A stretch of DNA of 64,000 nucleotides from Candidatus Woesearchaeota archaeon (GTDB lineage Archaea; Nanobdellota; Nanobdellia; Woesearchaeales; JBDRGA01). Made by a program: the position numbers and the translations under genes. The notes beneath the pieces were generated by a model. The model was not told where the DNA came from, did not search any database, and saw only the letters and a list, made by a program, of their open reading frames with translations. Location: the NCBI GenBank assembly GCA_043818175.1, contig JBDRGA010000016.1, positions 14,003 through 78,002 on the forward strand, read 5' to 3'. This document shows, piece after piece, positions 936-27,204 of this stretch; positions within the stretch are counted from its first letter, which is position 1; every line of letters begins with the position of its first letter.

Positions 936-937
936 GA

Positions 938-1734: not shown

Positions 1735-1741
1735 TGTTCCA

Positions 1742-4772: not shown

Positions 4773-4773
4773 T

Positions 4774-5166: not shown

Positions 5167-5177
5167 TTTGTTTACCC

Positions 5178-5408
5178 TCAGCTATATTTCTTGAATCCTA
5201 TCTGGCTTGCCACTTCCCTAAAGCACTGTCTGCATATCTTCAAACCGTACTTCTGGATGTGGGCCGCAGTTCTGCCGCAGCGCAGGCATTCGTGAGCTTT
5301 CCTTCCAAATGCACGTTCTTTGGGAACGTTGTACTTCTTGTGACGCAGCACCTTGCTCGGCTTGTGGCCAATCTGCTTCATTACTTTATCATGCCTTGAG
5401 TATGTCAT
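5178..5408 (-). CDS. rps14: 30S ribosomal protein uS14 (zinc-binding type)
   Basis: Small basic protein with CLRCGR...CRQCFRE, the two CxxC pairs of archaeal S14; located between L5 and S8. Confidence 0.85.
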
Positions 5409-5923
5409 TCTGCGTCACCCACTGTTATTTTGTAATGTTTCTTGAAGTAATCAATTGCATTTTCTCTTGTTATCTGGTGTTTCCTGCTGATTCTTGTTTT
5501 CTTAATCTTGCGTCTCTTGATTCTGAAGCCTGGCCTTTCCAAAGTTACGGAGACCTGGAGTCCCAAAATTCCAAGCTTGGGATCGTACTTCACACCTGGA
5601 ATGTCTATGTACTCTTTAATTCCGAAGCTTACATTTCCGAAATCATCAAAGCAAGGAGTGTCAAGGATGTTCTCTCTTGCCTGAACTAGGCGAGTCAGCA
5701 TTTCGTGCGCTGGTGGGCCTCTAAGCGTAATCTTGCATCCGATGGGCAGTCCAGGTCTAAGGCCCCATGCGGCCAACCTTTTTTGGGTTACTGTCTTGAT
5801 AGGTGGAATGCCAGTTATGAGTTTAAGTAATTCTACTCCCTTGTTAAGAAGGGCCTGGTCCTTACCCGCACCGAAGTTAAGGGTGACCTTCGCTATCCTT
5901 ATTTCACGCATATTGTTTTCCAT
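5405..5923 (-). CDS. rpl5: 50S ribosomal protein uL5
   Basis: 172 aa; L5 motifs (NFGAGKDQ..., [16 protein letters not shown]). Confidence 0.9.
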
Positions 5924-5925
5924 CT

Positions 5926-6618
5926 TTATTCGAGCTTGACGCTCGTCTTACCTGCCTTACCCACTACATGGGCAAAGGAAGTCGCTGTTTCGTATTCGTC
6001 GTTGCCGTGTTTGAACCGTATCATTTCTTCTTCTATCTTGACAATTGTGCCTATCCGGCCCGCGTACCTTCCAGCAGTCAGCAGAATCGCTGCGTTCTGT
6101 TCGAAAGGAAGCACCTCTTGCACTTTCTGGTCTGGAACTGTAATTAGCATCGTGTCACCAACTTTGACAGTTTCTTTGCCAAGCAAAAGAGTTCTGCCAT
6201 CTGATAAGCCCACTTGAATCTTTTTACCTCTGAGCATCACTTTTGATTTTACTCTAAGAGGCTTCAGGTTTGCTTCCTTTGTTGATATTTCCAATAAGTC
6301 AAGCTTCGCCCTTGCATTGAGTATTAACCTATACTGTTTGTTCAGAGCGGGGAAGCTCAGTACATCCATGAGTCCTACTTGTGCCTTTTCATCATACATC
6401 GGCTTTCCATCCTTGTGAACTTGCTTGTTGTGAAGCATGAACTTGACTTCCTTAGTTGTCCTGGCAAGCCCCAGAACTTCCTTAAGTGCTGTATTAACAC
6501 TCATGGCCGTGTCAAAGGAGTGTCCTCCTGGAAGTGGCCTCGATATGAATTTTGATATCTTTCTTCGTACGTCCCACGTCCTGGGGGTGCTTATTCTTTT
6601 GAGGTGTGATTTTACCAT
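5926..6618 (-). CDS. rps4e: 30S ribosomal protein eS4
   Basis: 230 aa; S4e N-terminus (HLKRISTPRTWDVRRK) and KOW-like region; archaea/eukaryote-specific. Confidence 0.9.
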   Translation of the reverse strand: MVKSHLKRISTPRTWDVRRKISKFISRPLPGGHSFDTAMSVNTALKEVLGLARTTKEVKFMLHNKQVHKDGKPMYDEKAQVGLMDVLSFPALNKQYRLILNARAKLDLLEISTKEANLKPLRVKSKVMLRGKKIQVGLSDGRTLLLGKETVKVGDTMLITVPDQKVQEVLPFEQNAAILLTAGRYAGRIGTIVKIEEEMIRFKHGNDEYETATSFAHVVGKAGKTSVKLE

Positions 6619-6620
6619 GA

Positions 6621-7013
6621 TTATGCCTCTCTGGCGAGCTTCGCCTTCCTCTTCTTGTCGTCAAGGTTCAATTCTGTAATCATCATGTTGCTTGGATGGA
6701 TTCCCACTTGCACCTTTGAGCCGTCTCTCTTTGTCTGCTGTGCCTTGCCGAGGAACACTCGGGTCTCCTTTATGTCTACTCGCTCGACCTTCGCTTCTAT
6801 TCCTTTGAATGCACCACGAAGCACTTTCACCTTGTCACCTGTGCGAACCCTTATGTTTCGCATCTTATGCTTCTCACGGAGGAGTTTGCTAAGGTGGACT
6901 GACAGAAGATGCCCTTTAGTGTGGAGTGGCGCGTTGGCTGTGTACTTGCGCTGCTTCCTAGGTTGACTGCTTGCCTTCCATGCCGTGCTGAATTTTGCTT
7001 TCATCTCATACAA
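6621..7013 (-). CDS. rpl24: 50S ribosomal protein uL24
   Basis: 130 aa; KOW motif (RTGDKVKVLRGAFKGIEAKV). Confidence 0.88.
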   Translation of the reverse strand: MYEMKAKFSTAWKASSQPRKQRKYTANAPLHTKGHLLSVHLSKLLREKHKMRNIRVRTGDKVKVLRGAFKGIEAKVERVDIKETRVFLGKAQQTKRDGSKVQVGIHPSNMMITELNLDDKKRKAKLAREA

Positions 7014-7407
7014 TCGTACTCGCGACCTTTGCTATTGCAGGCCAGCGTGAGCACGCCTCCTTTGCTATTGGACCCTTGAAAATGGTCCCTTTGGGATTGC
7101 CCTTGTCATCCTTTAGGACAACAACAGCATTATCTTCGAATTTGATTCTGGTACCGTCTGCGCGCCTATACTCCTTCCTCTGGCGTACGATGATTGCGTG
7201 CACAACCTGCTTACGCATGTCCGGTCTGCCTTTCTTTACTGCCACCATCACCAGGTCGCCTACTCCTCCTGCGGGAATTCTTCCCTTTCTCGTATTATGA
7301 CCAACCACGCTAAATACCTTGACGACTTTCGCGCCAGAGTTATCACAGACATCAACCTGCGCCCCAACAGGTATTCCTCTTGTTACGCTCGCGCTTATGG
7401 CCTTCAT
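7006..7407 (-). CDS. rpl14: 50S ribosomal protein uL14
   Basis: 133 aa; L14 signature (VCDNSGAKVVKV..., GDLVMVAVKKGRPDMRK). Confidence 0.9.
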   Translation of the reverse strand: MKAISASVTRGIPVGAQVDVCDNSGAKVVKVFSVVGHNTRKGRIPAGGVGDLVMVAVKKGRPDMRKQVVHAIIVRQRKEYRRADGTRIKFEDNAVVVLKDDKGNPKGTIFKGPIAKEACSRWPAIAKVASTIV

Positions 7408-7685
7408 ACCTTTTCCACCTTGTTCACTATTTCTGTAACGATAAAGTGTTTTGTCTTGCTTATTGGTCTAGTTTCACATACTATGACCTTATCTCCTACT
7501 TTCGCATTGATTGACTCGGGATTGTGTGCTTTGATTCTGCTTCTGCGTTTCTCGAAACGTTCGAACTTGCTGATGTATTTGCGTCGCTCCCATTCTACTG
7601 TTACTGTGCGCGCCATCCTGTCTGCTATTACAGTACCTACTAGGGTCTTCCCGCGAGGGATTATGTTTTTCTTGGTTGGTGTCAT
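7404..7685 (-). CDS. rps17: 30S ribosomal protein uS17
   Basis: 93 aa; OB-fold S17 (GKTLVGTVIADRMARTVTVEWERRKYISKFERF). Confidence 0.88.
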   Translation of the reverse strand: MTPTKKNIIPRGKTLVGTVIADRMARTVTVEWERRKYISKFERFEKRRSRIKAHNPESINAKVGDKVIVCETRPISKTKHFIVTEIVNKVEKV

Positions 7686-7963
7686 ATTCTCTTGATCCTT
7701 TCTTCCGGACGATGCCGGATGTCATCACCCATTACTGTCGAAGTTCCTATGCGAAACACACCTCCCTTCTTCGGGAAGTGAATTTCACCCTCTTCAGTCC
7801 TGACGATGAACGTCTCCTTTGTTTCGTCGATGACTATGCCTTTGCTGCCCGCCAACTTTTGTGTTGGCGAGTCAATAACCTCAATCTGCAACCCAATGAA
7901 TGGGCGCTTGAGGTCACCTGACTTCGATTGTTTCCGGGGCGAATCCCAGTTTGACGAGCTCAT
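7682..7963 (-). CDS. rnp1: RNase P protein component 1 (Rpp29/Pop4 homolog)
   Basis: 93 aa; IGLQIEVIDSPTQKLAGSKGIVIDETKETFIVRT...HFPKKGGVF matches archaeal Rpp29 Sm-like barrels. It sits in the conserved position between L29/SUI1 and S17. Confidence 0.75.
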   Translation of the reverse strand: MSSSNWDSPRKQSKSGDLKRPFIGLQIEVIDSPTQKLAGSKGIVIDETKETFIVRTEEGEIHFPKKGGVFRIGTSTVMGDDIRHRPEERIKRI

Positions 7964-8222
7964 CTTTTATTTTGTTCCTGTGGTCTCCTTGTAATTCGAT
8001 GATTCCGCCCTTTGACGTTCCACCACATGCAAAGGTACCTTTCAGCTTCTTGGCGACATCCTTGATGTCGACTTCGTGCTTATTGATACCTTCAACAATC
8101 GTGTACGGCTTGCCAAACTTACGCTTGACGAGCTTTGCCTTGATTGTCTGGCCCTCTTTTGCGATTTGATCCCACGCGCCAAGGACCTTGGGCAAGCCTG
8201 TGATTGGGTCGATTTCCGTCAT
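7914..8222 (-). CDS. sui1: Translation initiation factor SUI1 (aIF1/eIF1 family)
   Basis: 102 aa; KAKLVKRKFGKPYTIVEGINKHEVDIKDVAKKLKGTFACGGT...IELQGDHRNKI is the SUI1 fold signature. Its 3' end overlaps the Rpp29 ORF by ~50 nt. Confidence 0.85.
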   Translation of the reverse strand: MTEIDPITGLPKVLGAWDQIAKEGQTIKAKLVKRKFGKPYTIVEGINKHEVDIKDVAKKLKGTFACGGTSKGGIIELQGDHRNKIKDELVKLGFAPETIEVR

Positions 8223-8425
8223 GCTTGTTCGCCCGTCACCTCCTTGTTTTTCTGTGCTGTTCTTATCTGCGCTATTGTGCGCTTGATTAACTTAATCTGG
8301 TTTGGATTCTTTGGAGGAGTTCCTGTGCTGGACTGTGCCTGTAGTTTCATCAAATCCATCTTCAGTTCCTGCTCTTTCTTGACGAGCGCTTCATCATTCA
8401 TCCTCGAAATATCCTGGAACTTCAT
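8219..8425 (-). CDS. rpl29: 50S ribosomal protein uL29
   Basis: 68 aa helical protein, L29-like (ALVKKEQELKMDLMKLQAQ); between S3 and SUI1. Confidence 0.82.
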   Translation of the reverse strand: MKFQDISRMNDEALVKKEQELKMDLMKLQAQSSTGTPPKNPNQIKLIKRTIAQIRTAQKNKEVTGEQA

Positions 8426-9216
8426 GAGCCCTCCGTGGCGTCTTCATTTTTCACGGATTTCTTTGTTGATTTCTTAGCGGCCTTCTTTGCTGATTTTTTT
8501 GCTTCTTTCTTTTCTGGTTTTTCTTTGACAGCGACTTCTGGTGCTTCCGTTGAACCGCTGTCTTCAGCTACTAATGCAGCTACTTTCTGAACTGGTTCCT
8601 CCAGCTCTGCTATGACCGCTTCAACGTTAACATGTATTCTGTCTGGAAGTATTGTGCCTGGAGGCATTATACTTACTTTAACGCCAACGGTTCCTGCCTT
8701 GAGTTTTGCTGTGGCGTATGCTCTGTTGACTCCTGTAAGAGCAACGTCTCCTGCCTTCTTGAGGTATCCCTTGGCAAATCTCCAGGACTTTGCTCTTGCA
8801 CCTGGAATCTTTCCTTTTATTATGATTTCAACACCTTGCGCTCCCGCATTCATGACTTCTGAAAGGTACTTGTGACCAACACCTTTGAACCTGTTCGTGC
8901 CAAAGCGTTCAAGACTCGATGCGATGAGTTCTGCAATTATGTTTGCGTCCAAACCCACGTTCTGAACTTCCTCTATCTCTATCTGTGGGTTTTCCAGCTT
9001 GAATTCTTCTTTTAGTTGTCTTGTCAGCCTGCTTATGTTGCTTCCTGCCCTTCCAACAACCAGACCAGGCCTGCTTGCCGAGATTACTATCTTCTCACCC
9101 AAGGGCGTTTTCTGGAGCTTGACTGTGCTCAGCCCTACCCTGCCCAAACTGGCTTTCACGAATTCTGTAATTCTAAACTCATTCAAGTTGTCCTGTATGA
9201 ATTTGCGCTCGATCAT
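8422..9216 (-). CDS. rps3: 30S ribosomal protein uS3 with a Lys-rich C-terminal tail
   Basis: 264 aa; KH domain and S3 C-terminal domain, ending in a KKEAKKSAKKAAKKSTKKSVK tail. Confidence 0.9.
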   Translation of the reverse strand: MIERKFIQDNLNEFRITEFVKASLGRVGLSTVKLQKTPLGEKIVISASRPGLVVGRAGSNISRLTRQLKEEFKLENPQIEIEEVQNVGLDANIIAELIASSLERFGTNRFKGVGHKYLSEVMNAGAQGVEIIIKGKIPGARAKSWRFAKGYLKKAGDVALTGVNRAYATAKLKAGTVGVKVSIMPPGTILPDRIHVNVEAVIAELEEPVQKVAALVAEDSGSTEAPEVAVKEKPEKKEAKKSAKKAAKKSTKKSVKNEDATEGS

Positions 9217-9719
9217 TTCTTGGTCTCCGTCTGCACTTTTTGTTCAATTGATTTCTTTGGTGCTTCTTTCTTTTCCTTCTTGGGCTTGGCTTCACCCAAC
9301 GCAATCTCAATATGTGTTCTCTTTGAAATCCTTCTTGAATGTCTACCGAACTTCATGCTCCTGGTGCCGTGTTGAGCTCTGGCATGAATTATGACTAGGT
9401 TTTTTCCAAGCCCCTTAACTTGGGCGTTTGCTTCCGCGCTTGACAAGATCTTCAGTATTGCTGTTGCCGCTTTAACTGGATATCTTCCCATTCCAATGCC
9501 TGGCTTGTGAGATGCGCCCTCACTGAATCGATTGTACCTTATTGGTGCGTCCTGTGTCATCGCGCCTTCCAACATCTTCTTTGCACGGGCAACTGGTTTC
9601 TTCCTTATGGCATCACATATCTCGATACTATCTTTCGTGCTTATTCCCATATCTACACCCAGCGCTTTGGCAAGGGGTACGTCGGGTTTCTCGTTCAAGC
9701 TGTATCCATATTTTGCCAT
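9213..9719 (-). CDS. rpl22: 50S ribosomal protein uL22
   Basis: 168 aa; L22 fold (AKYGYSLNEKPD..., KNLVIIHARAQHG) with a Lys-rich C-terminus. Confidence 0.88.
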   Translation of the reverse strand: MAKYGYSLNEKPDVPLAKALGVDMGISTKDSIEICDAIRKKPVARAKKMLEGAMTQDAPIRYNRFSEGASHKPGIGMGRYPVKAATAILKILSSAEANAQVKGLGKNLVIIHARAQHGTRSMKFGRHSRRISKRTHIEIALGEAKPKKEKKEAPKKSIEQKVQTETKK

Positions 9720-9721
9720 TA

Positions 9722-10102
9722 TTACCTCACGCTGAGTGCGGCGCTGCTCTTGGTTGCGCCCACTCCTGGTGCGTTATGTCTAACATGACTTCTCGTCAAG
9801 ACGAGTTCTCCAAAGTACAAGCCGAGCATGTCTTCAGTAATTGTAACGGGAACGAATATCTTGCCATTGTGAATGCTGACTGTCTTGCCAACCATGGACG
9901 GGAATACCAACATATCCCTGCGATGGGTTTTCGCTGAACCTTTCTGCTCTATTTTTGCCAGGAGCTTCTTGTGTTCAGCGGATAGGCCTCTTGCAATCTT
10001 CCTGCGTTGCCTTGAAGGATATAATTCTGCCAACTCTTTCATTGAGAGTGCCTGCAGCTCCTCGAGCGTCTTTCCTCTGTACGTGAATATTTTCTTTGCC
10101 AT
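9722..10102 (-). CDS. rps19: 30S ribosomal protein uS19
   Basis: 126 aa; S19 signature (GKTVSIHNGKIFVPVTITEDMLGLYFGEL). Confidence 0.9.
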   Translation of the reverse strand: MAKKIFTYRGKTLEELQALSMKELAELYPSRQRRKIARGLSAEHKKLLAKIEQKGSAKTHRRDMLVFPSMVGKTVSIHNGKIFVPVTITEDMLGLYFGELVLTRSHVRHNAPGVGATKSSAALSVR

Positions 10103-10104
10103 GG

Positions 10105-10806
10105 TTACTTCTTCCTTCCTGTTCTTCTAGGTCTAATCATACCAACATTGCGTCCTGGTGGTGCGTTCTTTGGCGCAGGTCTTGCCTTGCTCTTACGTGA
10201 GCTTCTCTTGTTACCCATTGGGTGAGCAACTGCATTCATCGCGCCTCCCGAAACGATTGGCCAGTACGTGTGCCTTGCTTTCATTCTGTGGAACTTGAAT
10301 CCTGCTTTGAGAAATGGTTTCTCTGTTCTGCCGCCTCCTGCCGCATCTCCAATCATTGCTTTGCAGTCTGGATTGAATGATTTCTGTTTCTTGCTCGGAA
10401 GCTTTACTACAACCTTGTCAGGACCTCGCAATACAATAGTCGCGGACATTCCCGATGCACGAACCAATTTTCCTCCGTCTCCCGGACTGACCTCGATGTT
10501 AAAAATAGAAGTGCCTTCCGGAATTTCCTTCAATGGAATGGAATTTCCTATCTTTAGAGGTGCGCCGCTGCCCACCTCAAATGTCTGACCTACTGTGGTG
10601 CCTGTAGTTGCGAGCACTGTTCCTATTGTTTTATCATCGTAAACTACTACTGCCAAAGGCGCTGTATGCGATGTTGACCTGATGAATCCATTTATTGTGT
10701 ATGACTTTGCTGATTTCAGGAATACCTTCTGCTTGGATGTAGACCTGGGTCTCTTGAACACACTTGAGCCCTTGCCTCTCCTTTGCTGAATAAGGTTCTT
10801 TCCCAT
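10105..10806 (-). CDS. rpl2: 50S ribosomal protein uL2
   Basis: 233 aa; L2 signature (GAMNAVAHPMGNKRSSRKSK, GGGRTEKP). Confidence 0.9.
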   Translation of the reverse strand: MGKNLIQQRRGKGSSVFKRPRSTSKQKVFLKSAKSYTINGFIRSTSHTAPLAVVVYDDKTIGTVLATTGTTVGQTFEVGSGAPLKIGNSIPLKEIPEGTSIFNIEVSPGDGGKLVRASGMSATIVLRGPDKVVVKLPSKKQKSFNPDCKAMIGDAAGGGRTEKPFLKAGFKFHRMKARHTYWPIVSGGAMNAVAHPMGNKRSSRKSKARPAPKNAPPGRNVGMIRPRRTGRKK

Positions 10807-10808
10807 TG

Positions 10809-11054
10809 TTACATCATCCCCAGCCTGCTCGCGATATCAATGGCTGGTGTTTCTGGACTGAATTTGACTATTGCCTTCTTCTGGCCCTTCCTGTCTATGA
10901 GTGTGTTTACTGAAATCACTTTGGCATCAAACATTTCTTCGACAACCTTTCTGATCTCTGGTTTCTTCGCTTTAAGGTCAACTACGAAAACTATCTTGTT
11001 CTCTGCTTCCATCAATCTTATTGCCTTTTCCGTGCTCACTGGATGCTTGATCAT
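10809..11054 (-). CDS. rpl23: 50S ribosomal protein uL23
   Basis: 81 aa; L23 fold (KIVFVVDLKAKKPEIRKVVEEMFDAKV). Confidence 0.85.
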   Translation of the reverse strand: MIKHPVSTEKAIRLMEAENKIVFVVDLKAKKPEIRKVVEEMFDAKVISVNTLIDRKGQKKAIVKFSPETPAIDIASRLGMM

Positions 11055-11992
11055 TTGCTAACCTTCTTCGTGGGTTTCTTAACTGCTTTCTTAACTGTTT
11101 TCTTAACTGGTGCTTTCTTCGTTCTTGATGCTGCTTTCCTCTTGGGTTCTGCAATCTTCTCTGTCCTTTGCTTTGCAGGCGGCACATTTAGGAATAGACC
11201 TTCCTCAATCAGCCTCTTGATTGCTGTTTCGGTGAATAATGTTATTCTTCCATGGTGTGTTCCTGGTGCGAGGAGTTCCGCATTCAAAGCATGCACGGCA
11301 ACACAGTCAACTCCTGGAATGTTATTCAATGCCTTCATGACTGGAGCTTCCTGTGCCGTTACAATCAGGATACTCTTGCCTATCTTATGCTGTCTTCCTC
11401 TTGTTCTAGCGCGTCCTGTTCTTCTCGTTGGCTTTTCGGTTCTTGCAAGCTCATCTGCAAACCCCAGGGCATCCAGCGTTTTCCACGCTTCTGCGGTCTT
11501 CTGAATGTTTTCAAATCCAGATTCGATTATGAATGGATATTCCTTTGGGGGTATGTGTCCCCTTGCTTTAACAACTTCAGGAATCAAAGTGGCACTCATT
11601 GCGCTTCTTATGGCAAGACGGTTCTCCTTCTTGTTGACTTTCTTATCCCAAATCTTTTCTGCCTTGGGAGGATGTGCTCTCCTTCCACCGACTGTTCCGG
11701 GAGCGAGGGCTCCAACCCAATTCATTCTTGTTCCTCTCCTTGACATGATTTTTCTAGGAACACGACTTATACCTATGCCGTACGCCCCTCTATAGTCTCT
11801 TCTTCTTCTTGAGAGCTTTGCGCTGACCTGTTGGCCCGCTTCCTTAAACGAACCATATGGTTGTCGTGCTCCTGCCTGAAGAGCCAAAACTGCTTTCTTG
11901 ATTATGTCCTCTCTGAGCGGCTCGCTGAACTGTATGGGCATCTCCTGTTGCCCTTTTGACGTGTTCTGCATTGACCGTATTGTGAGTTTCAT
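11051..11992 (-). CDS. rpl4: 50S ribosomal protein uL4 with a Lys-rich C-terminal tail
   Basis: 313 aa; archaeal L4/L1e core followed by a KKAPVKKTVKKAVKKPTKKVSK tail. Confidence 0.88.
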   Translation of the reverse strand: MKLTIRSMQNTSKGQQEMPIQFSEPLREDIIKKAVLALQAGARQPYGSFKEAGQQVSAKLSRRRRDYRGAYGIGISRVPRKIMSRRGTRMNWVGALAPGTVGGRRAHPPKAEKIWDKKVNKKENRLAIRSAMSATLIPEVVKARGHIPPKEYPFIIESGFENIQKTAEAWKTLDALGFADELARTEKPTRRTGRARTRGRQHKIGKSILIVTAQEAPVMKALNNIPGVDCVAVHALNAELLAPGTHHGRITLFTETAIKRLIEEGLFLNVPPAKQRTEKIAEPKRKAASRTKKAPVKKTVKKAVKKPTKKVSK

Positions 11993-12936
11993 CCTTGCTT
12001 GCTCCTCGTGCTTATTGAGTCAATGGTGTATTGTTCTGGTGCTTCAGTTGGTCTAAGGGCTTGCGCCATTATTACCATGCGTTTCTTTGGTCCTGGTATT
12101 GAGCCCTTGATGAGAACATAGGGGTTCTTTACCACACCATATCTTATGAAACCGCCCTTGGGCGTTACTTCTTCGCCTTTTGTACCAATTTTGAGAATGA
12201 GGTTGTTGTATTGTGTTCTTTGATGGTAACCCATCTGGCCTGCATGCGCTACCCTGTACATCATGTGGGCCTGGCCATACCAAGCACCCAAGCTTCCGGG
12301 CCCTCTCTTGGTTTTCTCGCTCTTGTGGTGTCTGATGCTTACTCCAAATCTTTTTACCGGACCTTGGAATCCCCTTCCTGTTGTTATTGCATGGAAGTCA
12401 ACAAGTGAACTTTCCTTAAGAGCATCCTGAACTGTTATTTCCTGATGCTCCTGGGCGTACTTAATCTTCTCTTCCATGCTTCCACCCATCGGAATTTCGA
12501 AGAGCTCCGGCTTCTTCTTGATGCCAGCAAGAGCAGGTTGAGTATGAATTATTAGAACAACATCCTCGTATTCAGCAGCATTAACCTTTGAAAGGTCTCC
12601 TTTCTGCTTAAGATTTACTTTTCTTAGAACGTCTTTGGATGGTTTGAAATGAATGTCGAGAGAAGGAATGGAATTTTTGTAGAAACGGACGCCCGCGACC
12701 TTGAGCGGCGGACATTCAATGACCGTCACAGGGATTGCGAGCGTTTCGCCCTTCATTGGACTATTTTTTCTTCCATCGGTTGCCATGACATGGGTCATGC
12801 CTGCCTTATAGCCAGGAAAACCAGCAGGGCCTGGATTCTTTGTGTTCCATGTTCTGACGCGAGCATAGCTTCTCCTGGCACGTACTCGAGGCCATACTTG
12901 CATGCTTCCGTGTCTTGGTTGTGCTGGTTTCGGCAT
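11989..12936 (-). CDS. rpl3: 50S ribosomal protein uL3 (first gene of the r-protein operon)
   Basis: 315 aa; archaeal L3 N-terminus (PRHGSMQVWPRVRARR...) and conserved core. Confidence 0.9.
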   Translation of the reverse strand: MPKPAQPRHGSMQVWPRVRARRSYARVRTWNTKNPGPAGFPGYKAGMTHVMATDGRKNSPMKGETLAIPVTVIECPPLKVAGVRFYKNSIPSLDIHFKPSKDVLRKVNLKQKGDLSKVNAAEYEDVVLIIHTQPALAGIKKKPELFEIPMGGSMEEKIKYAQEHQEITVQDALKESSLVDFHAITTGRGFQGPVKRFGVSIRHHKSEKTKRGPGSLGAWYGQAHMMYRVAHAGQMGYHQRTQYNNLILKIGTKGEEVTPKGGFIRYGVVKNPYVLIKGSIPGPKKRMVIMAQALRPTEAPEQYTIDSISTRSKQG

Positions 12937-18593: not shown

Positions 18594-18989
18594 TCATGCG
18601 AGCGTGCCAATCTCAAAGCCATTGAGTGTACGTTCTGGCTTTCCCTGGCCGCCATGCTGAGCCAAAAATGCTTGCGTTGCGTCCTTTCCACACATGTTTA
18701 TTATGTTCTGCGAGCCCCCTGGATGCTGTTTAATCCAAGGAGTGAGGTCATAAACGACACCAGTTACTGCGCTCCAACATGCATCTGAAGTTCCGTGTGT
18801 CTGCACGTCTTGTAATGTGTACGTATCTTCTTGGGTTGTTGTGCTTGTTGGGTTTTCCGTCGCGGGCATTGTGCCGGTGGCTTGCTGCCCACTCTCTGTG
18901 GTTGTGATGTCAGTCTGTGATTTTGGCGTGCATGCTGTGATCACTAGCGCCACAAACAATAGTAATCCTAGTATTGTGTATATTTTCAT
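18594..18989 (-). CDS. Secreted lipoprotein with a cytochrome b5-like heme-binding domain
   Basis: Signal peptide plus lipobox (LLLFVALVITAC), a Thr-rich linker, then a HPGG motif typical of cyt-b5-like domains. The track ORF extends to 19115; I used the internal Met at 18989. Confidence 0.55.
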   Translation of the reverse strand: MKIYTILGLLLFVALVITACTPKSQTDITTTESGQQATGTMPATENPTSTTTQEDTYTLQDVQTHGTSDACWSAVTGVVYDLTPWIKQHPGGSQNIINMCGKDATQAFLAQHGGQGKPERTLNGFEIGTLA

Positions 18990-19059
18990 TGTTTTTGAAT
19001 ACCTCGGAAGTGAAAGAGTCAGTTCTGTAGATTTATAATACTTATGCACAATAAATACA

Positions 19060-21246
19060 TCAGTCAGAATACTCTGTATCAAGCACTTCGCGAATCCTTG
19101 CTGCTTTCTTTTCACCTATTAAGTCAACTTTCTGCAATTTTTCTTCAGATGCGGAAAGTAACTTCTTGGGCGTTTTGAACTTCTTGAGTAATGGTTTTGC
19201 AAGGGCAGGTCCAATACCAGGGAGTGAAGATATAAGATATTCCTGCTGTTCCTTCAGCGTTAATGGCTTTGCAGAATGCATTGTGAACTCCTTCTTCTTG
19301 TCTTCCTGAAATCGCTTTGCAATAACCCCAAATAATGCGGCAGTCTCTGCAGGACCAGAAGTTCTTAGCACAGGAATCTGAAAACTCAAAGCTAAAGTTG
19401 CAAGCATGCCCTGAATTGCAGAAGGATGCATATTCCTCTGCGCATACATATCTTCATCACCCTCAATGAGTATCAGTGGTTTCTGGTAAGCACGCAATCC
19501 TTTTGCCTGTGTAAGAAGCCGTCCATCAACAATACTATCAACAAAATCACGCACAGTCTTGAACTCAACACAAACATCCTCAGATAAAAGGTAATCTCCT
19601 ACTTCGAGTTGGGAGAGGTTAATAGTAAAGCCCTGTTCCGACAGGAGTTTTACTGTCTTTGATGCTTTCTCCCTGTGATCAACATAAATAGTCAATTTGT
19701 TGTCTGAGTAGTCCATAAGACTCCTTGTGCTCTTTTGGGGTGAGAAAGTTCTTTTCATCTCTTTCAATTCGCGATACATTCTAATCTCTTTATGGTGTGC
19801 GCTCCACCTGTGCGCTTCATCTCTTGTTCCCTTTGTTACTAGAACAACAACACGCCCTTTCTCCTGTCTCCCCGTTCTTCCTCTGCGTTGCACTGTTCTT
19901 ATTGCTGAAGGTACAGGTTCGTAGAATATCACCATATCCACTGCTGGAATGTCCAACCCTTCTTCTGCTACAGAAGTGGCCACTAAAACATTAAAACCTC
20001 CTTCCCTGAACGATTGCAATGTTGCCTGTTGTTTTTTCTGCGACATACCCGTATCTGCTTTCATCTGTTGGCCTACAAATATCTTGCAAGGTATCTTCTC
20101 TGTTTCGAGAGCGCGCACAAGCACAGATGCCTGGTCTCTGTATTGATTAAACAATATTATCTTAACCTCTTTATTGATGACATATTCATTCCTGATAAGC
20201 CGCACGGCTTCGCCGAGTTTCGGATGCTCAACTCCTTCCTCGAGAAGACGCGACGCCAAAAGGTGTGCCGCCTTAACATCTAGATGCTGCATCAGGTTCT
20301 TCACTGCTTTCACATTGGTGCTTCTAGACTGTTCGGAAAGTTTGTCAAGGTAGGCAACAACCGAAGCCACACCTTGTGTTTCCGCTAATTCTATGGCGTG
20401 CTGAACTTTCGTTGCCTGCGCAATAAGAGATAATGCTTTCATGGCAGTAAAATCTCTGTCGCGAGATACTGACGCACCAAGCGCGCGTTGAAGATGAAGC
20501 AAGTCCACTTTGTTCATCTGTGAACTATTATTTGGGGCGTGGCCCGTGGCAGCAAGCTGAGTCATTGCGTCGTCGTATGCTTTTTTCAAGTAATCTCTCA
20601 GCGCCAAAATCTTTGGGTGTGGTGTTAAGGTAACCCAATCCACGTTGATTTCCTGCACGTACTGTTTTACGTCGGGGTCTTCTTCTGTTCTTACTTCTAT
20701 ATCTTCAATATGAAGATTCTGCATTACTTCTTGAATGTCTTCTTTCCTGCTTCCCGGGCTTGCAGTTAGTGCGAGAAGTCTGGCGTGTGATGCTGACGCA
20801 AAATACCTCTTTGCAATAAAGACATAACCATAATCACCCACTGCTCTGTGCGCTTCATCCACTACGAGAAGCGAGACTGAGTCGAGTTTTATCCGTTTCG
20901 TGAGTATGTCGTTTTCAAGTCCTTGTGGTGTTGATATTACAACGCGCGCATCCTTCCACAATTCCTCTCGTGTTTCTGGTTTTACGTGGCCTGTGAACAA
21001 AACTATACGTTCCTCTGGAATGTCAAGATGATTTCGAAAACTGGCGGCGTGCTGCTCACATAAAGGTCTTGTGGGAGCCAACACCAACACTTTCGATCCA
21101 GAATAATGCTCTAGGCGGTGTGCGGCAAGCATCACGGCCACCATCGTTTTTCCCAGCCCCGTGGGCAAAACAACTAAAGTGTCGTGCTTTACTGCAGTGG
21201 CTAGAATTGTCTGCTGATATAGCCTTGGCTCGAACCCTTTAATCAT
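19060..21246 (-). CDS. hef: Hef: helicase-associated endonuclease for fork-structured DNA (SF2 helicase + ERCC4/XPF nuclease + HhH2)
   Basis: LPTGLGKT Walker A, VVDEAH DEAH box, a helicase C domain, an ERCC4 nuclease motif (IYVDHREKAS...) and C-terminal helix-hairpin-helix repeats. At ~728 aa from the internal Met (MIKGFEPRLYQQ), the size matches Pyrococcus Hef. Confidence 0.8.
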   Translation of the reverse strand: MIKGFEPRLYQQTILATAVKHDTLVVLPTGLGKTMVAVMLAAHRLEHYSGSKVLVLAPTRPLCEQHAASFRNHLDIPEERIVLFTGHVKPETREELWKDARVVISTPQGLENDILTKRIKLDSVSLLVVDEAHRAVGDYGYVFIAKRYFASASHARLLALTASPGSRKEDIQEVMQNLHIEDIEVRTEEDPDVKQYVQEINVDWVTLTPHPKILALRDYLKKAYDDAMTQLAATGHAPNNSSQMNKVDLLHLQRALGASVSRDRDFTAMKALSLIAQATKVQHAIELAETQGVASVVAYLDKLSEQSRSTNVKAVKNLMQHLDVKAAHLLASRLLEEGVEHPKLGEAVRLIRNEYVINKEVKIILFNQYRDQASVLVRALETEKIPCKIFVGQQMKADTGMSQKKQQATLQSFREGGFNVLVATSVAEEGLDIPAVDMVIFYEPVPSAIRTVQRRGRTGRQEKGRVVVLVTKGTRDEAHRWSAHHKEIRMYRELKEMKRTFSPQKSTRSLMDYSDNKLTIYVDHREKASKTVKLLSEQGFTINLSQLEVGDYLLSEDVCVEFKTVRDFVDSIVDGRLLTQAKGLRAYQKPLILIEGDEDMYAQRNMHPSAIQGMLATLALSFQIPVLRTSGPAETAALFGVIAKRFQEDKKKEFTMHSAKPLTLKEQQEYLISSLPGIGPALAKPLLKKFKTPKKLLSASEEKLQKVDLIGEKKAARIREVLDTEYSD

Positions 21247-21307
21247 AATGAAACAGAAAAGGAAGAATCGTTTAATTGCTTTTCCTCCGAAAAAAAGAGG
21301 AAAAAAT

Positions 21308-21562
21308 TTATCGCTTCTTGACAGTGCGTTTCCTGCCACGCGCCATCTTTGCGCGGCTGATGTCGCCCTGACTGTCTACGAAGTACAGGTATCCTGACTC
21401 CTTCTTGACGCCTGCCTTGGCTACCTTCTCGCGTTTGGCTTTTCCTTTCTTCTTGCCACCACCGCGGGCCATCTGTGCGCGGGAGATGTCTCCCTGCTTG
21501 TCGACGAAGTACAGGTAACCGTACTGTTTCTTAACTCCTACTTTTGCAACCTTTTGTGCCAT
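21308..21562 (-). CDS. Small basic protein built from two tandem ~36-aa repeats (VAKxGVKKxxGYLYFVDxQGDISRAxMARG)
   Basis: Directly visible internal duplication; Lys/Arg-rich with no Cys; possibly nucleic-acid binding. Function unknown. Confidence 0.45.
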   Translation of the reverse strand: MAQKVAKVGVKKQYGYLYFVDKQGDISRAQMARGGGKKKGKAKREKVAKAGVKKESGYLYFVDSQGDISRAKMARGRKRTVKKR

Positions 21563-21683
21563 GGTTTGTTATCCCTCCACTATACTGGATTATCGTCTTC
21601 CCGAGGAATTGCATATATAAAGGTTTTGGTTTTCTCGACGGTGCGGCCTCCATATTTATATTTCAACAGGAATTCCTAAAGGA

Positions 21684-21959
21684 ATGGCAGACTTGTTTGT
21701 CTCGGCTCTTGGCATTATGGACGTGCTATCCGGGCTTGGTGCAGTGCTCATAGGCCTTGATATTTTTGGATTGAGGGCGGGCGTGGGAATTGCCATGTAT
21801 CTAGTGCTTAAGGCAATAGTATTCAGATTCGAGATTCTTTCCACTATTGACGCGCTTGCTGGCCTTGTGGTGCTTATTGGCTCTCTGCTCCCTTTAGGAA
21901 TAGTTTTCTGGGTTGGAGCAGGTTACCTCATCGGAAAGGGTGCTTATTCTCTCCTTTAA
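21684..21959 (+). CDS. Small membrane protein (about 3 TM helices)
   Basis: 91-aa hydrophobic ORF. A TATTTATAT element lies ~25 bp upstream of the ATG. Confidence 0.45.
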   Translation: MADLFVSALGIMDVLSGLGAVLIGLDIFGLRAGVGIAMYLVLKAIVFRFEILSTIDALAGLVVLIGSLLPLGIVFWVGAGYLIGKGAYSLL

Positions 21960-22693
21960 GACTTCTCAAATGCTCTTGTGTATAACCAGGTGGCAAGAGC
22001 GGCCAGAACTACGGCCAGAATTACACCCCCAACACCACCTATGAGTGCGAGAAAACCATAGAAGAACACGAACGTGAAAACAAACGCCCAACCCATTCTT
22101 GAAGTCTTGAACAAATCAAGCCCTTGGTTCCACGGAAGGGGCAGAAGCATACCCACACCCAACCACCACGAGAGAAGTAGCAGGTCTCTCGCCAGTTCGG
22201 CACCAGATGCATAATATATTAGTTTGAAGAGTAAAACTCCAAGCACGGATACTAACGCGCCACCCGCAACTATTTTGGCAAGGTCTCCGTGGTTCCTCCA
22301 GTATCTAAACTGCCCGAGGCGCAGCCGTTCATGATGGTGCGCGTAGAACGTGCCAATGAATAGCCAGGGCGTTATTATTGTAGGAACAAGAGGTTCGAGC
22401 ATGTACGCAAGATACAAACCAATCCCTAGCAAGATTATGCTCATTCTGAATTCAAGACGATAACCCATGGAAAGTGCGAGAACCTTCTGAAATCCCAAGA
22501 TTGCGTACAGAAGAATAAGAACAACAATAAGATATAATATGAACACACTTATCCAAGTTATCAACGAATATTCTCTCTCAAAAAATCTAGGTATTGAGAA
22601 TGTTATCGCAAGTACAATTGCAGTAACAACATAATTTCTGAATTCCTCATCAGACCAAGAATAGTGTGCCCTTGCCCTTGCGAAGATTCCCAC
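21956..22693 (-). CDS. Polytopic membrane protein, unknown function (downstream partner of TraB)
   Basis: 245 aa with 6-7 predicted TM segments, directly downstream of the TraB-family gene on the same strand. Confidence 0.5.
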   Translation of the reverse strand: MGIFARARAHYSWSDEEFRNYVVTAIVLAITFSIPRFFEREYSLITWISVFILYLIVVLILLYAILGFQKVLALSMGYRLEFRMSIILLGIGLYLAYMLEPLVPTIITPWLFIGTFYAHHHERLRLGQFRYWRNHGDLAKIVAGGALVSVLGVLLFKLIYYASGAELARDLLLLSWWLGVGMLLPLPWNQGLDLFKTSRMGWAFVFTFVFFYGFLALIGGVGGVILAVVLAALATWLYTRAFEKS

Positions 22694-22716
22694 GTCAGTG
22701 CCGCTGGGAAAGTCGT

Positions 22717-23358
22717 TTATATTGCTTTTGCTTTGGTTAGTGCTTCAAGTATTCCCGGCACGTGGCCTGCACCCACAACAGCCAGAACGTCTTTAGAAGC
22801 TAATGCTGCGAGATTGCGCGCCATATACTCATCTCTTTCAGAAACAAGAACTGCATAGAGTGAAGGATACGATTTTTTGAACATTTGCATCACTTCAAGT
22901 ATTAGTTTGTCTTCTGGCACTTTTCTTATGTCCAGACTAAACTTCTGCCTTCTTGGAATTATCATATCTCTAAAAAGTCGCAATTTCTCTCTGAACGTGA
23001 ACTTCTTGGAGAACCTTTTCATCGTTATTACTAGTGGACGGTCTATTAATGCTACAGGAACATTATTTTCAGAAGCAAGCTTGACTGCATGAAGCATCTC
23101 ACTTCCGGGATTCATACCTACAAATCTACCAAACTTGCCTTGAATCCAGCTTCCTATTAAAACAAACAAATAACCAGCAAGACCTATCTGTCTTATCAGG
23201 TTGGGACTTCTGGAAGACTTAATGTTGTTTTGAAGAGCATACAAACGTTGAGAATCAAGTTCGACAGCCACGATTTCAGGAATCCTTTCCTTGAACGCCG
23301 CATTTATTGAATTAATAGAGTCCTTGGATACATGGGACGTGCCTAAAATACGAATCAT
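22717..23358 (-). CDS. TraB/PrgY/GumN family protein
   Basis: N-terminal ILGTSHVS (the GTxHxS hallmark), and the C-terminal AVVGAGHVPGI motif. Confidence 0.75.
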   Translation of the reverse strand: MIRILGTSHVSKDSINSINAAFKERIPEIVAVELDSQRLYALQNNIKSSRSPNLIRQIGLAGYLFVLIGSWIQGKFGRFVGMNPGSEMLHAVKLASENNVPVALIDRPLVITMKRFSKKFTFREKLRLFRDMIIPRRQKFSLDIRKVPEDKLILEVMQMFKKSYPSLYAVLVSERDEYMARNLAALASKDVLAVVGAGHVPGILEALTKAKAI

Positions 23359-23400
23359 GAACTTAAGATTAAGATAATGAATTAAAAGATTGCGAAATGA

Positions 23401-24213
23401 TTACGAAGTTGCCTTCATATTGTCCCAAGTGGTCTCAAACATGGACTTCAGGGCCTGGCCAAAGGACGGTGTCGTTGCCCAGATTCCAGCATCATATGAT
23501 GGATGTACGTTTTCATCGTGCAAAAACATGAACGCCACTTGTTTGTCGTCAACAATGCAGAATCTCGCCTTCTGATCTTTTTGAGTTCGAACTTCGGCCA
23601 CGGCCTTCAAAGACTCGATTGCTCTCTTTGTCTTTGCTGTTAGGGGGGCAGATATTCTTATTGATACGCCCCTGTCCTTTGCTTTCTTGAAGGACAGCAT
23701 CAACTGCTCGCTCTTCTTTACTATACCTTCTTCGCTCGTTACAAGAATTATTGAATGCTTTGCTTCGTTGATCATATACTCCAAATGGTCTGTGAGGCTG
23801 TCCCTTCCTTTTATGGATCCTGCCATATCTGAAGGATTAATCATTTCAATGCCTTGAGAATGAAGAATGGAAAGTTCAGTAAGGACTTCAGAACCTTTTA
23901 TTTCATCCATCATTTGGATATGTGTTTCTGAATCCTCTTTTATGCGCTTCTTGACACGTTCAAGAACCTCGTTTGGTTGAATGGCAAGGTACTTTATGGG
24001 TTTTCCAACCTTCATCATGATGAAGCCCTTCTTTTCGAGGGACTCAAGAACATCGTAGCTTCTGCTTCTGGGAACATTTGCTATGTCGCTTAGCTCGCCA
24101 GCAGTGCTTACGCCACGGCTGAGCAAAGCTGCCCAGATCTTTGCTTCGTAGCTGTTAAGCCCGAAATCCTTCAGTTTCTTGAGGAATCTTTCATTCACGA
24201 CCATTATCGTCAC
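23401..24213 (-). CDS. TrmB family transcriptional regulator
   Basis: N-terminal wHTH (LGLNSYEAKIWAALLSRGVSTAGELSDIANVPRSRSYDVLESLEKKGF), a coiled-coil and a C-terminal effector domain. Confidence 0.8.
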   Translation of the reverse strand: MTIMVVNERFLKKLKDFGLNSYEAKIWAALLSRGVSTAGELSDIANVPRSRSYDVLESLEKKGFIMMKVGKPIKYLAIQPNEVLERVKKRIKEDSETHIQMMDEIKGSEVLTELSILHSQGIEMINPSDMAGSIKGRDSLTDHLEYMINEAKHSIILVTSEEGIVKKSEQLMLSFKKAKDRGVSIRISAPLTAKTKRAIESLKAVAEVRTQKDQKARFCIVDDKQVAFMFLHDENVHPSYDAGIWATTPSFGQALKSMFETTWDNMKATS

Positions 24214-24565
24214 CTGTTAATGGGAATGTTTGTTGTATATATAAGCGTTTCGACATTTGACTATTGAGTAGTGATTACAAATTGTGGATGTTATGTGACC
24301 CTCCTGTTGCACTTGGAAACGCGAAAATCAAAATAAACGAACTTTTTCGAATGATGTTTATATATAATATATAATATATTTCAATATTGAAAAATAATAA
24401 TAAGAGTTCTCATTTCTGATATTAAACAAGAAAACAGTCGCAAGCCATATAAGAAAGTTCCATAGGAAATGAAGGGGTGTCTCTTCATCACTCGAAACCA
24501 ACAATTCCCTTACTTATATTCTCGTAGCGCAATCCTTAAATAGGGGTGTGTTTCGAGTGCAACGT
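24214..24565. other. Putative replication origin (oriC): ORB element, AT-rich unwinding region and inverted repeats upstream of orc1/cdc6
   Basis: A full ORB-like box GTTCCATAGGAAATGAAGGGGTG lies at ~24457-24479. A ~70-bp >85% AT stretch at 24355-24420 contains the palindrome TTTCAATATTGAAA. Inverted repeats GTTGCACTTGGAAAC (24306-24320) and GTTTCGAGTGCAAC (24550-24563) flank it. The layout matches the Pyrococcus cdc6-polD origin. Confidence 0.55.
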
Positions 24566-25771
24566 ATGGGGAATTTGAAGAATTATTTCGAGGCATACCT
24601 GAACACAACAAGCATTTTTAGTGATAAACATGTGCTTCAGAGCAACTACTTTCCAACCGAAGTAAATCATCGGAACGAACAGATAACTCAAGTGGCTAAA
24701 ATACTCGCTCCAGCACTTCGCGGCGAGAAACCGAGCAACCTATTTATTTATGGAAAAACAGGAACCGGAAAGACACTTTGCGTGAAACACACAACAAGTC
24801 AGATGTCCAAGGTGGCATCTGAGAAAGGAATTGCATTAAAAGTGTGTTATTTGAACTGCAAACTCAAGAAGATTGCAGATACAGAATACAGGCTTATTGC
24901 ACAGCTCGCGAGAGAATTTGGCAAGGCGATTCCACCAACAGGACTACCAACGGACGAAGTTTACAACACTTTCTTTTCTGCTCTAGATGCCGAGAAACAA
25001 ATAGTATTGTTGGTTCTGGACGAAATTGACCAATTGGTTAAGAAAGCAGGGGATGAAATAATATACAATCTCACAAGAATAAATTCAGACCTTAAGAACT
25101 CACAAGTGAGCATTATAGGAATAAGTAATGATTTAATGTTCAGTAACAATCTAGACCCACGCGTCAAGTCGAGTTTGAGTGAAGAGGAGCTTCTCTTTCC
25201 ACCATACAACGCGCTTCAGATCCAGGAAATACTAAAAGAAAGAGCAGACATCGCATTCAAAGAAGGAGCACTCCAGGAAGGAGTAATACAAAAATGTGCA
25301 GCATATGCTGCAAGGGAACACGGTGATGCGAGAAGAGCACTAGAACTGTTAAGAGTTGCAGGAGAACTGGCAGAAAGAAGCCAACAGGAACAAGTAACAA
25401 CAGAACAGATAGACAGCGCAGAGGATAAGATAGAGCACGACAGAGTGTATGAATTGGTAAAAACACAACCAAAACAACACCAACTCGTACTTTTCAGCAT
25501 TTTAAACATAAAACCAGAGAACTCACAAACCCAAATTTATACAGGAGAAGTTTACGATTATTACAAAGGGCTCTGCGACCAGGTTAGCCAAAGACCATTG
25601 ACGCAAAGAAGAGTCAGTGATGTAATACAGGAAATGGACATGTTGGGCATAATAAATGCAAACGTGATAAGCAAAGGCCGTTTTGGCCGGACAAGAGAAA
25701 TAAGTCTTGCGATACATCATTCCCTGAAGACAAAAATAATGACCACGTTGAAAGATGAAGTATTCTCCTGA
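24566..25771 (+). CDS. cdc6: Orc1/Cdc6 replication initiator
   Basis: AAA+ Walker A GKTGTGKT, Walker B LVLDEID, sensor motifs and a C-terminal winged helix. The track ORF starts at a GTG at 24548; I used the ATG at 24566. Confidence 0.88.
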   Translation: MGNLKNYFEAYLNTTSIFSDKHVLQSNYFPTEVNHRNEQITQVAKILAPALRGEKPSNLFIYGKTGTGKTLCVKHTTSQMSKVASEKGIALKVCYLNCKLKKIADTEYRLIAQLAREFGKAIPPTGLPTDEVYNTFFSALDAEKQIVLLVLDEIDQLVKKAGDEIIYNLTRINSDLKNSQVSIIGISNDLMFSNNLDPRVKSSLSEEELLFPPYNALQIQEILKERADIAFKEGALQEGVIQKCAAYAAREHGDARRALELLRVAGELAERSQQEQVTTEQIDSAEDKIEHDRVYELVKTQPKQHQLVLFSILNIKPENSQTQIYTGEVYDYYKGLCDQVSQRPLTQRRVSDVIQEMDMLGIINANVISKGRFGRTREISLAIHHSLKTKIMTTLKDEVFS

Positions 25772-27204
25772 TGGACCCCGAACTCATCAAACGGCTTCTT
25801 GAGAAGAACATTCTGGTGTCGCCAGACACCACAGATGAAGAAGCCAGAAGGCTACTTGGCGATGCACCAGAAACCAAATTAGTTATCAATCCAAACGAAG
25901 CACCGGAATTGAATATAGTTTATGATTTCAACGAACCGCCAAAGAAACGCACAGTTCAGGACTTTGTAGGGTTATTTAATGCGAGATTCCGCGAGCTTGA
26001 AGGAATACTGAGGAATCGTGTTGAACTACAGAACCTTACCAGCATTTCGAGAGCCAAGAAAATGCAGGCCAGAGAAAGAACAGCAATTATTGGAATGGTT
26101 CTGGACAAGCGCGAAACAAAAAATCACAACATAATACTTGTCATGGAAGACCAGACCGGAAGCATAACAACAATATTCACTCAGAAAAACAAAGAAACGT
26201 TTGAAATGGTCAAAGACATAATGCTGGATGAAGTAATAGGCATAACAGGCCAGACCGCAGGAGATGCAATCTTTGCTGATAAAATAATTTTGCCAGATGT
26301 GCCAGTAACAAAAGAACTCAGAAAAGCACAAGAGGATGAATATTTGGTCGTGCTTGGAGACCCACACATAGGAAGCAAACGATTTCTAAGACACAGCTTC
26401 GGAAAGTTTCTCCAATGGATAAATGCAGAGGCGGGCACACCAGAACAAAGAGATAATGCGAAAAAAGTAAAACACATAATTGTTACTGGTGATTTGGTTG
26501 AGGGAGTCGGAATTTATCCAAACCAGGAAAGGGACTTGGAAATTCCAGACATACGTGCACAGTACGAAGCCCTAACGAGTATAATCAGTCAGATTCCACA
26601 ACGAATACGGATAACGATGTTCACAGGCAACCACGATTCTGGCAGGATGGCAGAACCCCAACCCGCCCTGGGAGACTATTATTCAGAAACGTTGCACAAA
26701 TTACCAAACGTGACGTTCGTAAGCAATCCAAGCGTAGTCAACATAGGCAGAACAGACAAGTTTGAAGGATTTGATTTGCTTCTTTACCATGGATATAGTT
26801 TAGGATACTACGGGACAAATATACCAAGCGTCAGAGCGGCAGGAGGCATGACGCGCGCGGACCTAATCATGAAATACTTTCTTCAGAGAAGACACCTTGC
26901 GCCATCTCACAAGAGCACACTGTATGTTCCCACACCTCAGAAAGACCCGCTAGTAATATCCACAATTCCCGACTTCTTCATAACCGGGCACACCCACTGT
27001 GTTACTGTAACCAATTACAGAAATATTACTTTAATTAATGGCAGTTGCTGGGCGGGAATGAGTGAAGACCAGGAAAAGAGAGGAATAACACCAGCTCCAG
27101 CAAGAATAATTCTGGTGAACTTGAAGACAAGAGCAGTAAAGATAATGAATTTCATGGACAAGACAGACATAGAAGAAGGAAGGAGCCTGGAGCTGGTTGC
27201 ATGA
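25771..27204 (+). CDS. polB: DNA polymerase D small subunit (DP1; Mre11-like phosphoesterase)
   Basis: 477 aa; OB domain plus calcineurin-like phosphoesterase motifs (VVLGDPHIG, GDLVEGVG, GNHD, GHTH). Confidence 0.85.
   Translation: MDPELIKRLLEKNILVSPDTTDEEARRLLGDAPETKLVINPNEAPELNIVYDFNEPPKKRTVQDFVGLFNARFRELEGILRNRVELQNLTSISRAKKMQARERTAIIGMVLDKRETKNHNIILVMEDQTGSITTIFTQKNKETFEMVKDIMLDEVIGITGQTAGDAIFADKIILPDVPVTKELRKAQEDEYLVVLGDPHIGSKRFLRHSFGKFLQWINAEAGTPEQRDNAKKVKHIIVTGDLVEGVGIYPNQERDLEIPDIRAQYEALTSIISQIPQRIRITMFTGNHDSGRMAEPQPALGDYYSETLHKLPNVTFVSNPSVVNIGRTDKFEGFDLLLYHGYSLGYYGTNIPSVRAAGGMTRADLIMKYFLQRRHLAPSHKSTLYVPTPQKDPLVISTIPDFFITGHTHCVTVTNYRNITLINGSCWAGMSEDQEKRGITPAPARIILVNLKTRAVKIMNFMDKTDIEEGRSLELVA

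Follow-up and report, generated by a model that had tools for sequence, protein, structure and literature searches.

The 84-residue basic protein encoded on the minus strand at 21308-21562 of the window (the whole 64,000-nucleotide stretch of DNA analysed) is the product of a real gene under very strong purifying selection, and would be the first member to be described of a two-module domain family within the small basic nucleic-acid binders. We give about an even chance to the reading that the protein is architectural and abundant, binding nucleic acid without sequence specificity, and is most likely a DNA binder of the nucleoid or chromatin type; its biochemical function, we infer, would most likely be to coat or bend DNA or RNA. 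Here we describe the gene and its relatives, the predicted structure of the repeated module, and the evidence for and against other functions.

The coding sequence begins with ATG and ends with a TAA stop at 21308-21310, and its product has the exact sequence of NCBI MFH1649398.1 (recorded as "hypothetical protein ABIA93_02530" of Candidatus Woesearchaeota archaeon, a MAG). With a mass of 9.4 kDa, a pI of 10.6 and a net charge of +20 (18 Lys and 8 Arg, compared with 4 Asp and 2 Glu), the protein is as small and strongly basic as is expected of a nucleoid-associated protein. An earlier note on this DNA had remarked on that composition, correctly, and had suggested nucleic-acid binding, which stands as a reasonable inference. 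Four segments can be distinguished along the minus strand: module 1 (residues 1-34, 21461-21562, MAQKVAKVGVKKQYGYLYFVDKQGDISRAQMARG; predicted strands at 3-6, 16-20 and 26-30), the Lys/Gly-rich linker GGKKKGKAK (residues 35-43, 21434-21460), module 2 (residues 44-76, 21335-21433, REKVAKAGVKKESGYLYFVDSQGDISRAKMARG; predicted strands at 45-48, 58-62 and 68-72), and the basic C-terminal tail RKRTVKKR (residues 77-84, 21311-21334). Most archaeal relatives stop 6-8 residues before the end of the window protein. The tandem internal duplication about a GGKKKGKAK spacer, as first proposed, was confirmed: the ORF sequence had been given exactly, and the two halves, aligned locally, score 135, compared with 24.5 +/- 4.8 (maximum 47) in 2,000 shuffles. 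The modules are indeed a near-identical pair, each of about 33-34 residues rather than the 36 originally assigned. At the nucleotide level they are 76% identical, with pS 0.67 and pN 0.12, values that indicate an old duplication kept by selection and not a recent repeat.

The earlier note had allowed that the frame might lack homologues, purifying selection among relatives, or a plausible promoter; all three were found. Homologues number in the thousands, forming 4,361 clusters at 90% identity (E <= 0.01) and 817 clusters at 50% identity, and at least 577 loci were confirmed on GTDB contigs, with one genome per species. Family members are mostly 73-78 residues long. Compared with 84 orthologues, the gene shows a median synonymous difference of 0.80, which is saturated, and a median non-synonymous difference of 0.19; omega lies between 0.06 and 0.2 wherever dS is finite, and the amino acid sequences remain 75-89% identical despite the saturation of synonymous sites.

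Signals for transcription and translation flank the gene on the same strand. A good promoter at 21614-21629 consists of a BRE-like element (CCAAAACC, 21622-21629) followed by a TATA box (TTTATATA, 21614-21621); it lies about 55 nt 5' of the ATG, with an implied 5' UTR of about 29 nt, and similar TTTATATA or TTTAAATA boxes occur 5' of orthologues. The Shine-Dalgarno sequence GGAGGG (21573-21578) ends 10 nt before the ATG, and a comparable motif is found within 20 nt of the start in 57 of 63 archaeal orthologues. Directly after the stop, the coding strand carries runs of six and seven T (21290-21306), a likely archaeal oligo-T terminator; because 61 of the 63 orthologues have at least five consecutive T in the 60 nt that follow the stop, these sequences point to a transcription unit separate from the downstream gene. 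On a codon-usage scale built from the window itself (ribosomal-protein genes versus other genes), the small gene scores +0.084 log-likelihood ratio per codon, a value based on only 84 codons, which falls inside the ribosomal-protein range (-0.004 to +0.09) and exceeds every one of the 13 other genes (-0.063 to +0.008). Taken together, the consensus TATA box, strong Shine-Dalgarno sequence and ribosomal-protein-like codons suggest that the gene is probably highly expressed. In many archaeal orthologues (L021, L020, L009, L028, L022 and L069 are examples), a stable hairpin and then an A-rich stretch directly precede the Shine-Dalgarno sequence, within the 65 nt before the start codon; the hairpin is conserved in position and not in sequence. 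This hairpin could be an autoregulatory leader; folding of the region across orthologues has a median z of -1.1, with z < -2 in 21%, and the window's own short 5' UTR is unremarkable (z -1.27).

By the searches made here the two-module family is undescribed, in keeping with the initial impression that the module was unrecognised and perhaps uncharacterised: Pfam-A 2025, NCBIfam 2026 and the PDB, the last by sequence or by fold, contain no match. For the whole protein, the best Pfam-A E-values were 0.058-0.074, with scores of 13-14 bits where the family cut-offs are 25-27 bits; NCBIfam and PDB sequence searches returned only noise, and a PHROGs search nothing significant, the weak match being to phrog_9154, which has no assigned function. 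The GenBank phage and PLSDB plasmid collections yielded no match to the family. The sensitive search with a single module that had been advised was carried out with a profile of 76 non-redundant modules (consensus EKVxxxGIxRExGYLYFxDxxGDVxR, with G13, Y16 and G22 invariant), and it matched PDB sequences only through an 11-residue hairpin motif repeated in designed PQQ-type propellers, non-significantly, with an i-Evalue above 700 for each occurrence. Interrogation of a set of 5.8 billion proteins with a 42-residue profile retrieved more two-module proteins only, and no new fusions. Precomputed Pfam assignments are empty for the approximately 240 relatives listed, save two faint matches to PF27482 (Beta-prop_YycP), and the source names of relatives are "hypothetical" apart from a few JGI labels ("YcgL", "20S proteasome subunit") that have no model match; the window protein itself gave no match to YcgL/UPF0745 in a Pfam scan at E <= 10. 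In the literature, full-text searches on the motif, PF27482 and chromatin proteins of DPANN archaea turned up no account of the family. Known classes of small DNA binder also failed to accommodate the protein: ARGRK and ARGGG are present, but the R-G-R-P core of an AT-hook is absent and the 84 residues include no Pro, and an all-beta model without a Pfam match argues against a histone fold, Alba or HU.

Prediction of the tandem unit's structure, another of the checks originally suggested, depended on the depth of the alignment. With 30 close homologues, a shallow alignment, AlphaFold2 reached a pLDDT of only 56, and with 55 diverse homologues a pLDDT of 85.6 and a pTM of 0.70, with 55 residues at pLDDT >=90. 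The latter model is all-beta, comprising two three-stranded units and no helices, with linker and tail of low confidence. Each module of about 33 residues is confidently predicted to fold into three antiparallel strands connected as a beta meander (beta1 KVAK, beta2 YLYFV, beta3 ISRA) with a tight D-K-x-G-D turn between the second and third strands. As modelled, the pair is without a recognisable counterpart among solved structures: a Foldseek comparison with 350,542 chains gave a best E of 1.1 and TM-scores below 0.3 for all matches listed, in a search whose power is limited by the small size of the protein. The two modules are equivalent. Across 131 two-module proteins, modules 1 and 2 share a position-by-position consensus, and their starts are spaced 39-42 residues apart in almost all; identity between the modules of one protein is 0.70, close to that between proteins for module 1 with module 1 (0.68) or module 1 with module 2 (0.66). 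A shared consensus at fixed spacing implies that both modules are under the same constraint, as would be expected if they contacted two equivalent sites on a repeating partner.

Comparison with known systems offers a functional analogy rather than a relationship. Sul7d (Sso7d/Sac7d) and Cren7 are abundant, monomeric, all-beta chromatin proteins of about 7-9 kDa, very basic, that bind DNA non-specifically through the aromatic, Met and Arg side chains of a three-stranded sheet. The window protein is similar in size, charge and expression signals, and in function would resemble them, though it belongs to none of the families tested: Sul7d and Cren7 are single SH3-like five-stranded barrels confined to Crenarchaeota, whereas the window protein has two three-stranded modules and a family spread over DPANN archaea and bacteria, and a profile-profile comparison (hhalign) with Sso7d was negative, with no Sul7d/Cren7 structural match. 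The WW domain is likewise a three-stranded antiparallel meander of about 35 residues, often in tandem, and its SGRVYYFNH loosely resembles SGYLYFVDK; WW domains are eukaryotic binders of proline peptides and are not basic, the window protein lacks the two signature Trp (it has no Trp at all) as well as Pro, and hhalign returned a probability of 11.4% over 13 columns. With blades of PQQ-like and YycP propellers the module shares a G-x-L-Y-x-x-D/N-x-x-G hairpin, but only 11 columns align, and two three-stranded modules differ from the four or more four-stranded blades of a ring. A beta-propeller identity was accordingly rejected: each stretch matching designed propellers has an i-Evalue above 700, and the PF27482 match of a three-module relative is faint. 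Finally, K/A/S/T-rich tails of 15-35 residues on some bacterial members (P0011, P0004, P0013 and P0010; for example GGKAKKKSSAKKTSKRKTSKKKTAKKKKR) are the same in character as those of chlamydial Hc1 and mycobacterial HU/Hlp, whose folded parts are unrelated; archaeal members, the window protein included, are short-tailed.

The family is dispersed across both prokaryotic domains, in hundreds of archaea and bacteria that are uncultured. Most loci come from Woesearchaeota or Nanoarchaeia, with at least one homologue listed from Anstonellales, and bacteria account for about a quarter of the best 80 of at least 577 loci, including Auribacterota, Omnitrophota, Elusimicrobiota/Endomicrobia, Myxococcota, Nitrospirae, Planctomycetia and Neomarinimicrobiota. 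The bacterial loci are flanked by ordinary bacterial genes (uvrA, panC, gmk-coaBC-priA, dnaE, Omp85), and one lies on a deltaproteobacterial contig of 2.79 Mb. Identity between archaeal and bacterial members is 65-85%, and the 73-residue proteins of Elusimicrobia are 70-85% identical to those of Woesearchaeota. Relatives of the module, at 39-60% identity, are also encoded on eight IMG/VR viral contigs (L088-L095) of up to 103 kb; some of these seem to consist of a single module, with matches of about 33-42 residues. The module also occurs in larger proteins. It follows zinc ribbons in P0135, P0145, P0167 and P0200, is fused to HIT in P0166 and to ASCH in P0264, and is present in six copies with acidic linkers between them in P0128 (354 residues). 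P0135 (468 residues) combines its zinc ribbons with four modules, a GAF domain and a prokaryotic RING finger, and in P0121 (886 residues) six modules or more accompany a transmembrane region. Other examples place the module in probably cytoplasmic parts of membrane proteins (DoxX, OmpA/MotB-like, P0149, and P0121 itself). A putative PD-(D/E)xK nuclease in the fusion P0236 was not confirmed and was set aside as evidence.

Genomic surroundings of the family are mostly variable, and clustering of neighbours identified no universal one among 86 loci. A DNA repair or replication gene lies within two genes of the family member in 25 of the 86, a raw count from loci that are not phylogenetically independent; such neighbours include HerA (9 loci), an Mre11-like phosphoesterase (5), a protein with OB and winged-helix domains (5) and Hef (3). 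UvrA is directly downstream in five bacterial loci of the 86, and in further bacterial loci dnaE is immediately upstream in one lineage and priA is 2.5 kb away in another. This recurrence may be taken as a weak pointer to DNA metabolism, and not to a partnership with Hef. The commonest neighbour of all is a protein of about 159 residues without a Pfam match, seen at 15 loci (L020 5288-5764 and 14 others), in 11 of which its gene is the adjacent upstream one in the same orientation; proteins of 228 and 195 residues, also without Pfam matches, recur upstream in 8-9 loci.

Our preferred reading, that of a nucleic-acid-binding architectural protein, draws on the charge, the Lys-rich linker and tails, the paired aromatic and basic surfaces predicted at a fixed spacing, the conservation between archaea and bacteria, the expression signals, the DNA-metabolism neighbours and the fusions to HIT, ASCH and zinc-ribbon domains. 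L17, F19, M31 and V5, with their module 2 equivalents, are invariant or nearly so, and strand alternation would place them on one face, where they may form a small hydrophobic core between the modules. The opposite face (Y16, Y18, R28, K4 and K30, all invariant or conserved) would then be exposed, as judged from the same alternation and not from coordinates, and the invariant R33-G34 and R75-G76 would join it to give two equivalent Tyr/Arg/Lys surfaces. These surfaces could engage two adjacent sites along a polyanion of repeating structure, to which the Lys-rich linker and the tail, long and H1-like in some bacteria, would contribute additional electrostatic affinity. Conservation across domains of life implies a universal partner; were that partner a universal polymer, the protein could work in both archaea and bacteria and stay 65-85% identical. 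Occurrence of the module in probably cytoplasmic parts of membrane proteins is not easily explained by a DNA-binding role, and the HIT and ASCH fusions fit the binding of RNA or nucleotides as well as of DNA.

A bolder form of this reading, which we advance only tentatively and regard as clearly less probable, is that the family is an unrecognised major chromatin or nucleoid protein of DPANN archaea and of several bacterial phyla, largely uncultured, having a new minimal DNA-binding fold, a pseudo-dimer of three-stranded modules. It would, on equally tentative grounds, be common to Woesearchaeota, Nanoarchaeota, Elusimicrobiota, Omnitrophota, Auribacterota, Marinimicrobia and others, with a conservation reminiscent of histones. 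Chromatin has gone almost without study in DPANN archaea and in many candidate bacterial phyla. If a nucleoid protein, this one would bring a new fold to the few chromatin proteins known from prokaryotes, and would be one more case of such proteins crossing the boundary between archaea and bacteria; should it bind nucleic acid, the protein, at 73-84 residues easily synthesised, would make a cheap and well-defined target.

Among competing functions, the one to be taken most seriously, though we think it unlikely, is that the two-module protein binds RNA or associates with the ribosome, at a conserved rRNA site or as an RNA chaperone, and is not a nucleoid protein of DNA. Its extreme conservation across archaea and bacteria, its ribosomal-protein-like codon usage and strong Shine-Dalgarno sequence would all be at home in such a protein, as would the fusions to ASCH and HIT domains. 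The hairpin and A-run upstream of several orthologues resemble the leaders of autoregulated ribosomal-protein genes, L34e and a KOW protein are encoded within 4 kb in some Woesearchaeota, and the aromatics presumed to be exposed on the beta strands are typical of proteins that bind RNA or single-stranded DNA. Yet no ribosomal-protein or RNA-binding family is matched, the gene was never inside a ribosomal-protein operon among the loci examined (in the window it is about 9 kb away), its recurrent neighbours are genes of DNA repair and replication rather than translation, and H1-like Lys-rich tails are better known from DNA-binding proteins. Should the protein bind RNA or the ribosome after all, it would be a new small factor of universal type, and on either outcome the two-module family deserves a family definition.

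Improbable, in our estimation, is the proposal that the module serves in general cytoplasmic interactions, with a protein, a ligand or an anionic lipid, and that the small protein is an adaptor. The variety of architectures speaks for it, extending as it does to the DoxX, OmpA-type, P0121 and P0149 membrane proteins and to the protein with GAF and RING domains; so does the GxLYxxDxxG motif held in common with PQQ-type blades, together with the faint Beta-prop_YycP match, from which the module might be proposed to be related, as a free-standing unit, to the hairpins of beta-propeller blades or to WW-like ones. These similarities are non-significant, however (i-Evalue above 700; hhalign probability 11%), and a charge of +20, a Lys-rich linker and tails, and near-identity across domains are hard to explain by a lineage-specific protein partner.

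The gene downstream on the same strand is of Hef type, with DEAD helicase, Helicase_C, ERCC4 nuclease and HhH domains, and we attach very little probability to the notion that the 84-residue protein is a dedicated Hef accessory subunit, co-transcribed with it and targeting it to forked DNA. As mechanically listed, the hef ORF extends over 19060-21339 on the minus strand, with a GTG start and an overlap of 32 nt with the small gene. Its start is more likely the ATG at 21246 (MIKGFEPRLYQQ) than the GTG at 21339, because the version so defined has its helicase domain starting at residue 6-10, and the small gene then lies 61 nt upstream of hef. The position of the small gene directly upstream of hef, to which the earlier note had drawn attention, therefore holds as a same-strand adjacency in the window, and the same arrangement recurs in three other loci of Woesearchaeota; a conserved link to Hef does not. 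When co-occurrence was checked across related loci, as that note had advised, Hef was directly downstream in only 3 of 86 (L013, L044 and L073) and missing from the neighbourhood in the other 83. Moreover, the family is frequent in bacteria, where Hef does not occur, and the interval between the two genes contains the six- and seven-T runs. In closely syntenic Woesearchaeota relatives a different gene sits downstream, encoding an OB-fold protein of about 200-230 residues (a weak Pfam match) with an apparent C-terminal winged helix. On this distribution the idea of a Hef partner was rejected and is effectively excluded. Synteny with other Woesearchaeota (L001-L004) instead extends upstream, over 21684-24213 of the window, in a block containing a divergent membrane protein of 90-91 residues, a membrane protein of 244-245 residues without a Pfam match, TraB/PrgY and a TrmB-family regulator. 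Least credible of all is a spurious ORF or low-complexity artefact, a suspicion invited by a short, lysine-rich sequence without annotation in family databases and effectively excluded by thousands of homologues with conserved length, start and stop positions, by amino acids conserved over saturated synonymous sites, by the presence of promoter, Shine-Dalgarno sequence and terminator, and by a confident fold prediction.

Several other features of the window were recorded. An AT-rich intergenic region at 24214-24563, just upstream of orc1/cdc6 (24548-25771) and then the PolD small subunit (25771-27204), is probably a replication origin; it contains the inverted repeats GTTGCACTTGGAA / TTTCGAGTGCAAC (24306-24318 / 24551-24563) and CACTCGAAAC / GTTTCGAGTG (24489-24498 / 24550-24559), and cumulative GC skew has a local minimum at 22-24 kb. 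The small basic gene is about 2.7 kb from this putative origin. Neither tRNA genes nor Rfam families (gathering threshold) were detected within the 64 kb. The main ribosomal-protein operon occupies 3-12019 on the minus strand, from L4, L2, L22, S3, S4e, L6, L32e, L19e and S5 to SecY; a frameshifted giant gene, entertained for this region on account of a strong coding-strand purine skew and tiled frames of 125-330 residues, was dismissed in favour of that ordinary operon. Downstream of hef, at 18594-19115 on the minus strand, a protein of 173 residues with an N-terminal hydrophobic segment and a Thr/Ser-rich linker carries a cytochrome b5-like haem-binding domain (Pfam E 7.6e-18), which is unusual for a DPANN archaeon.
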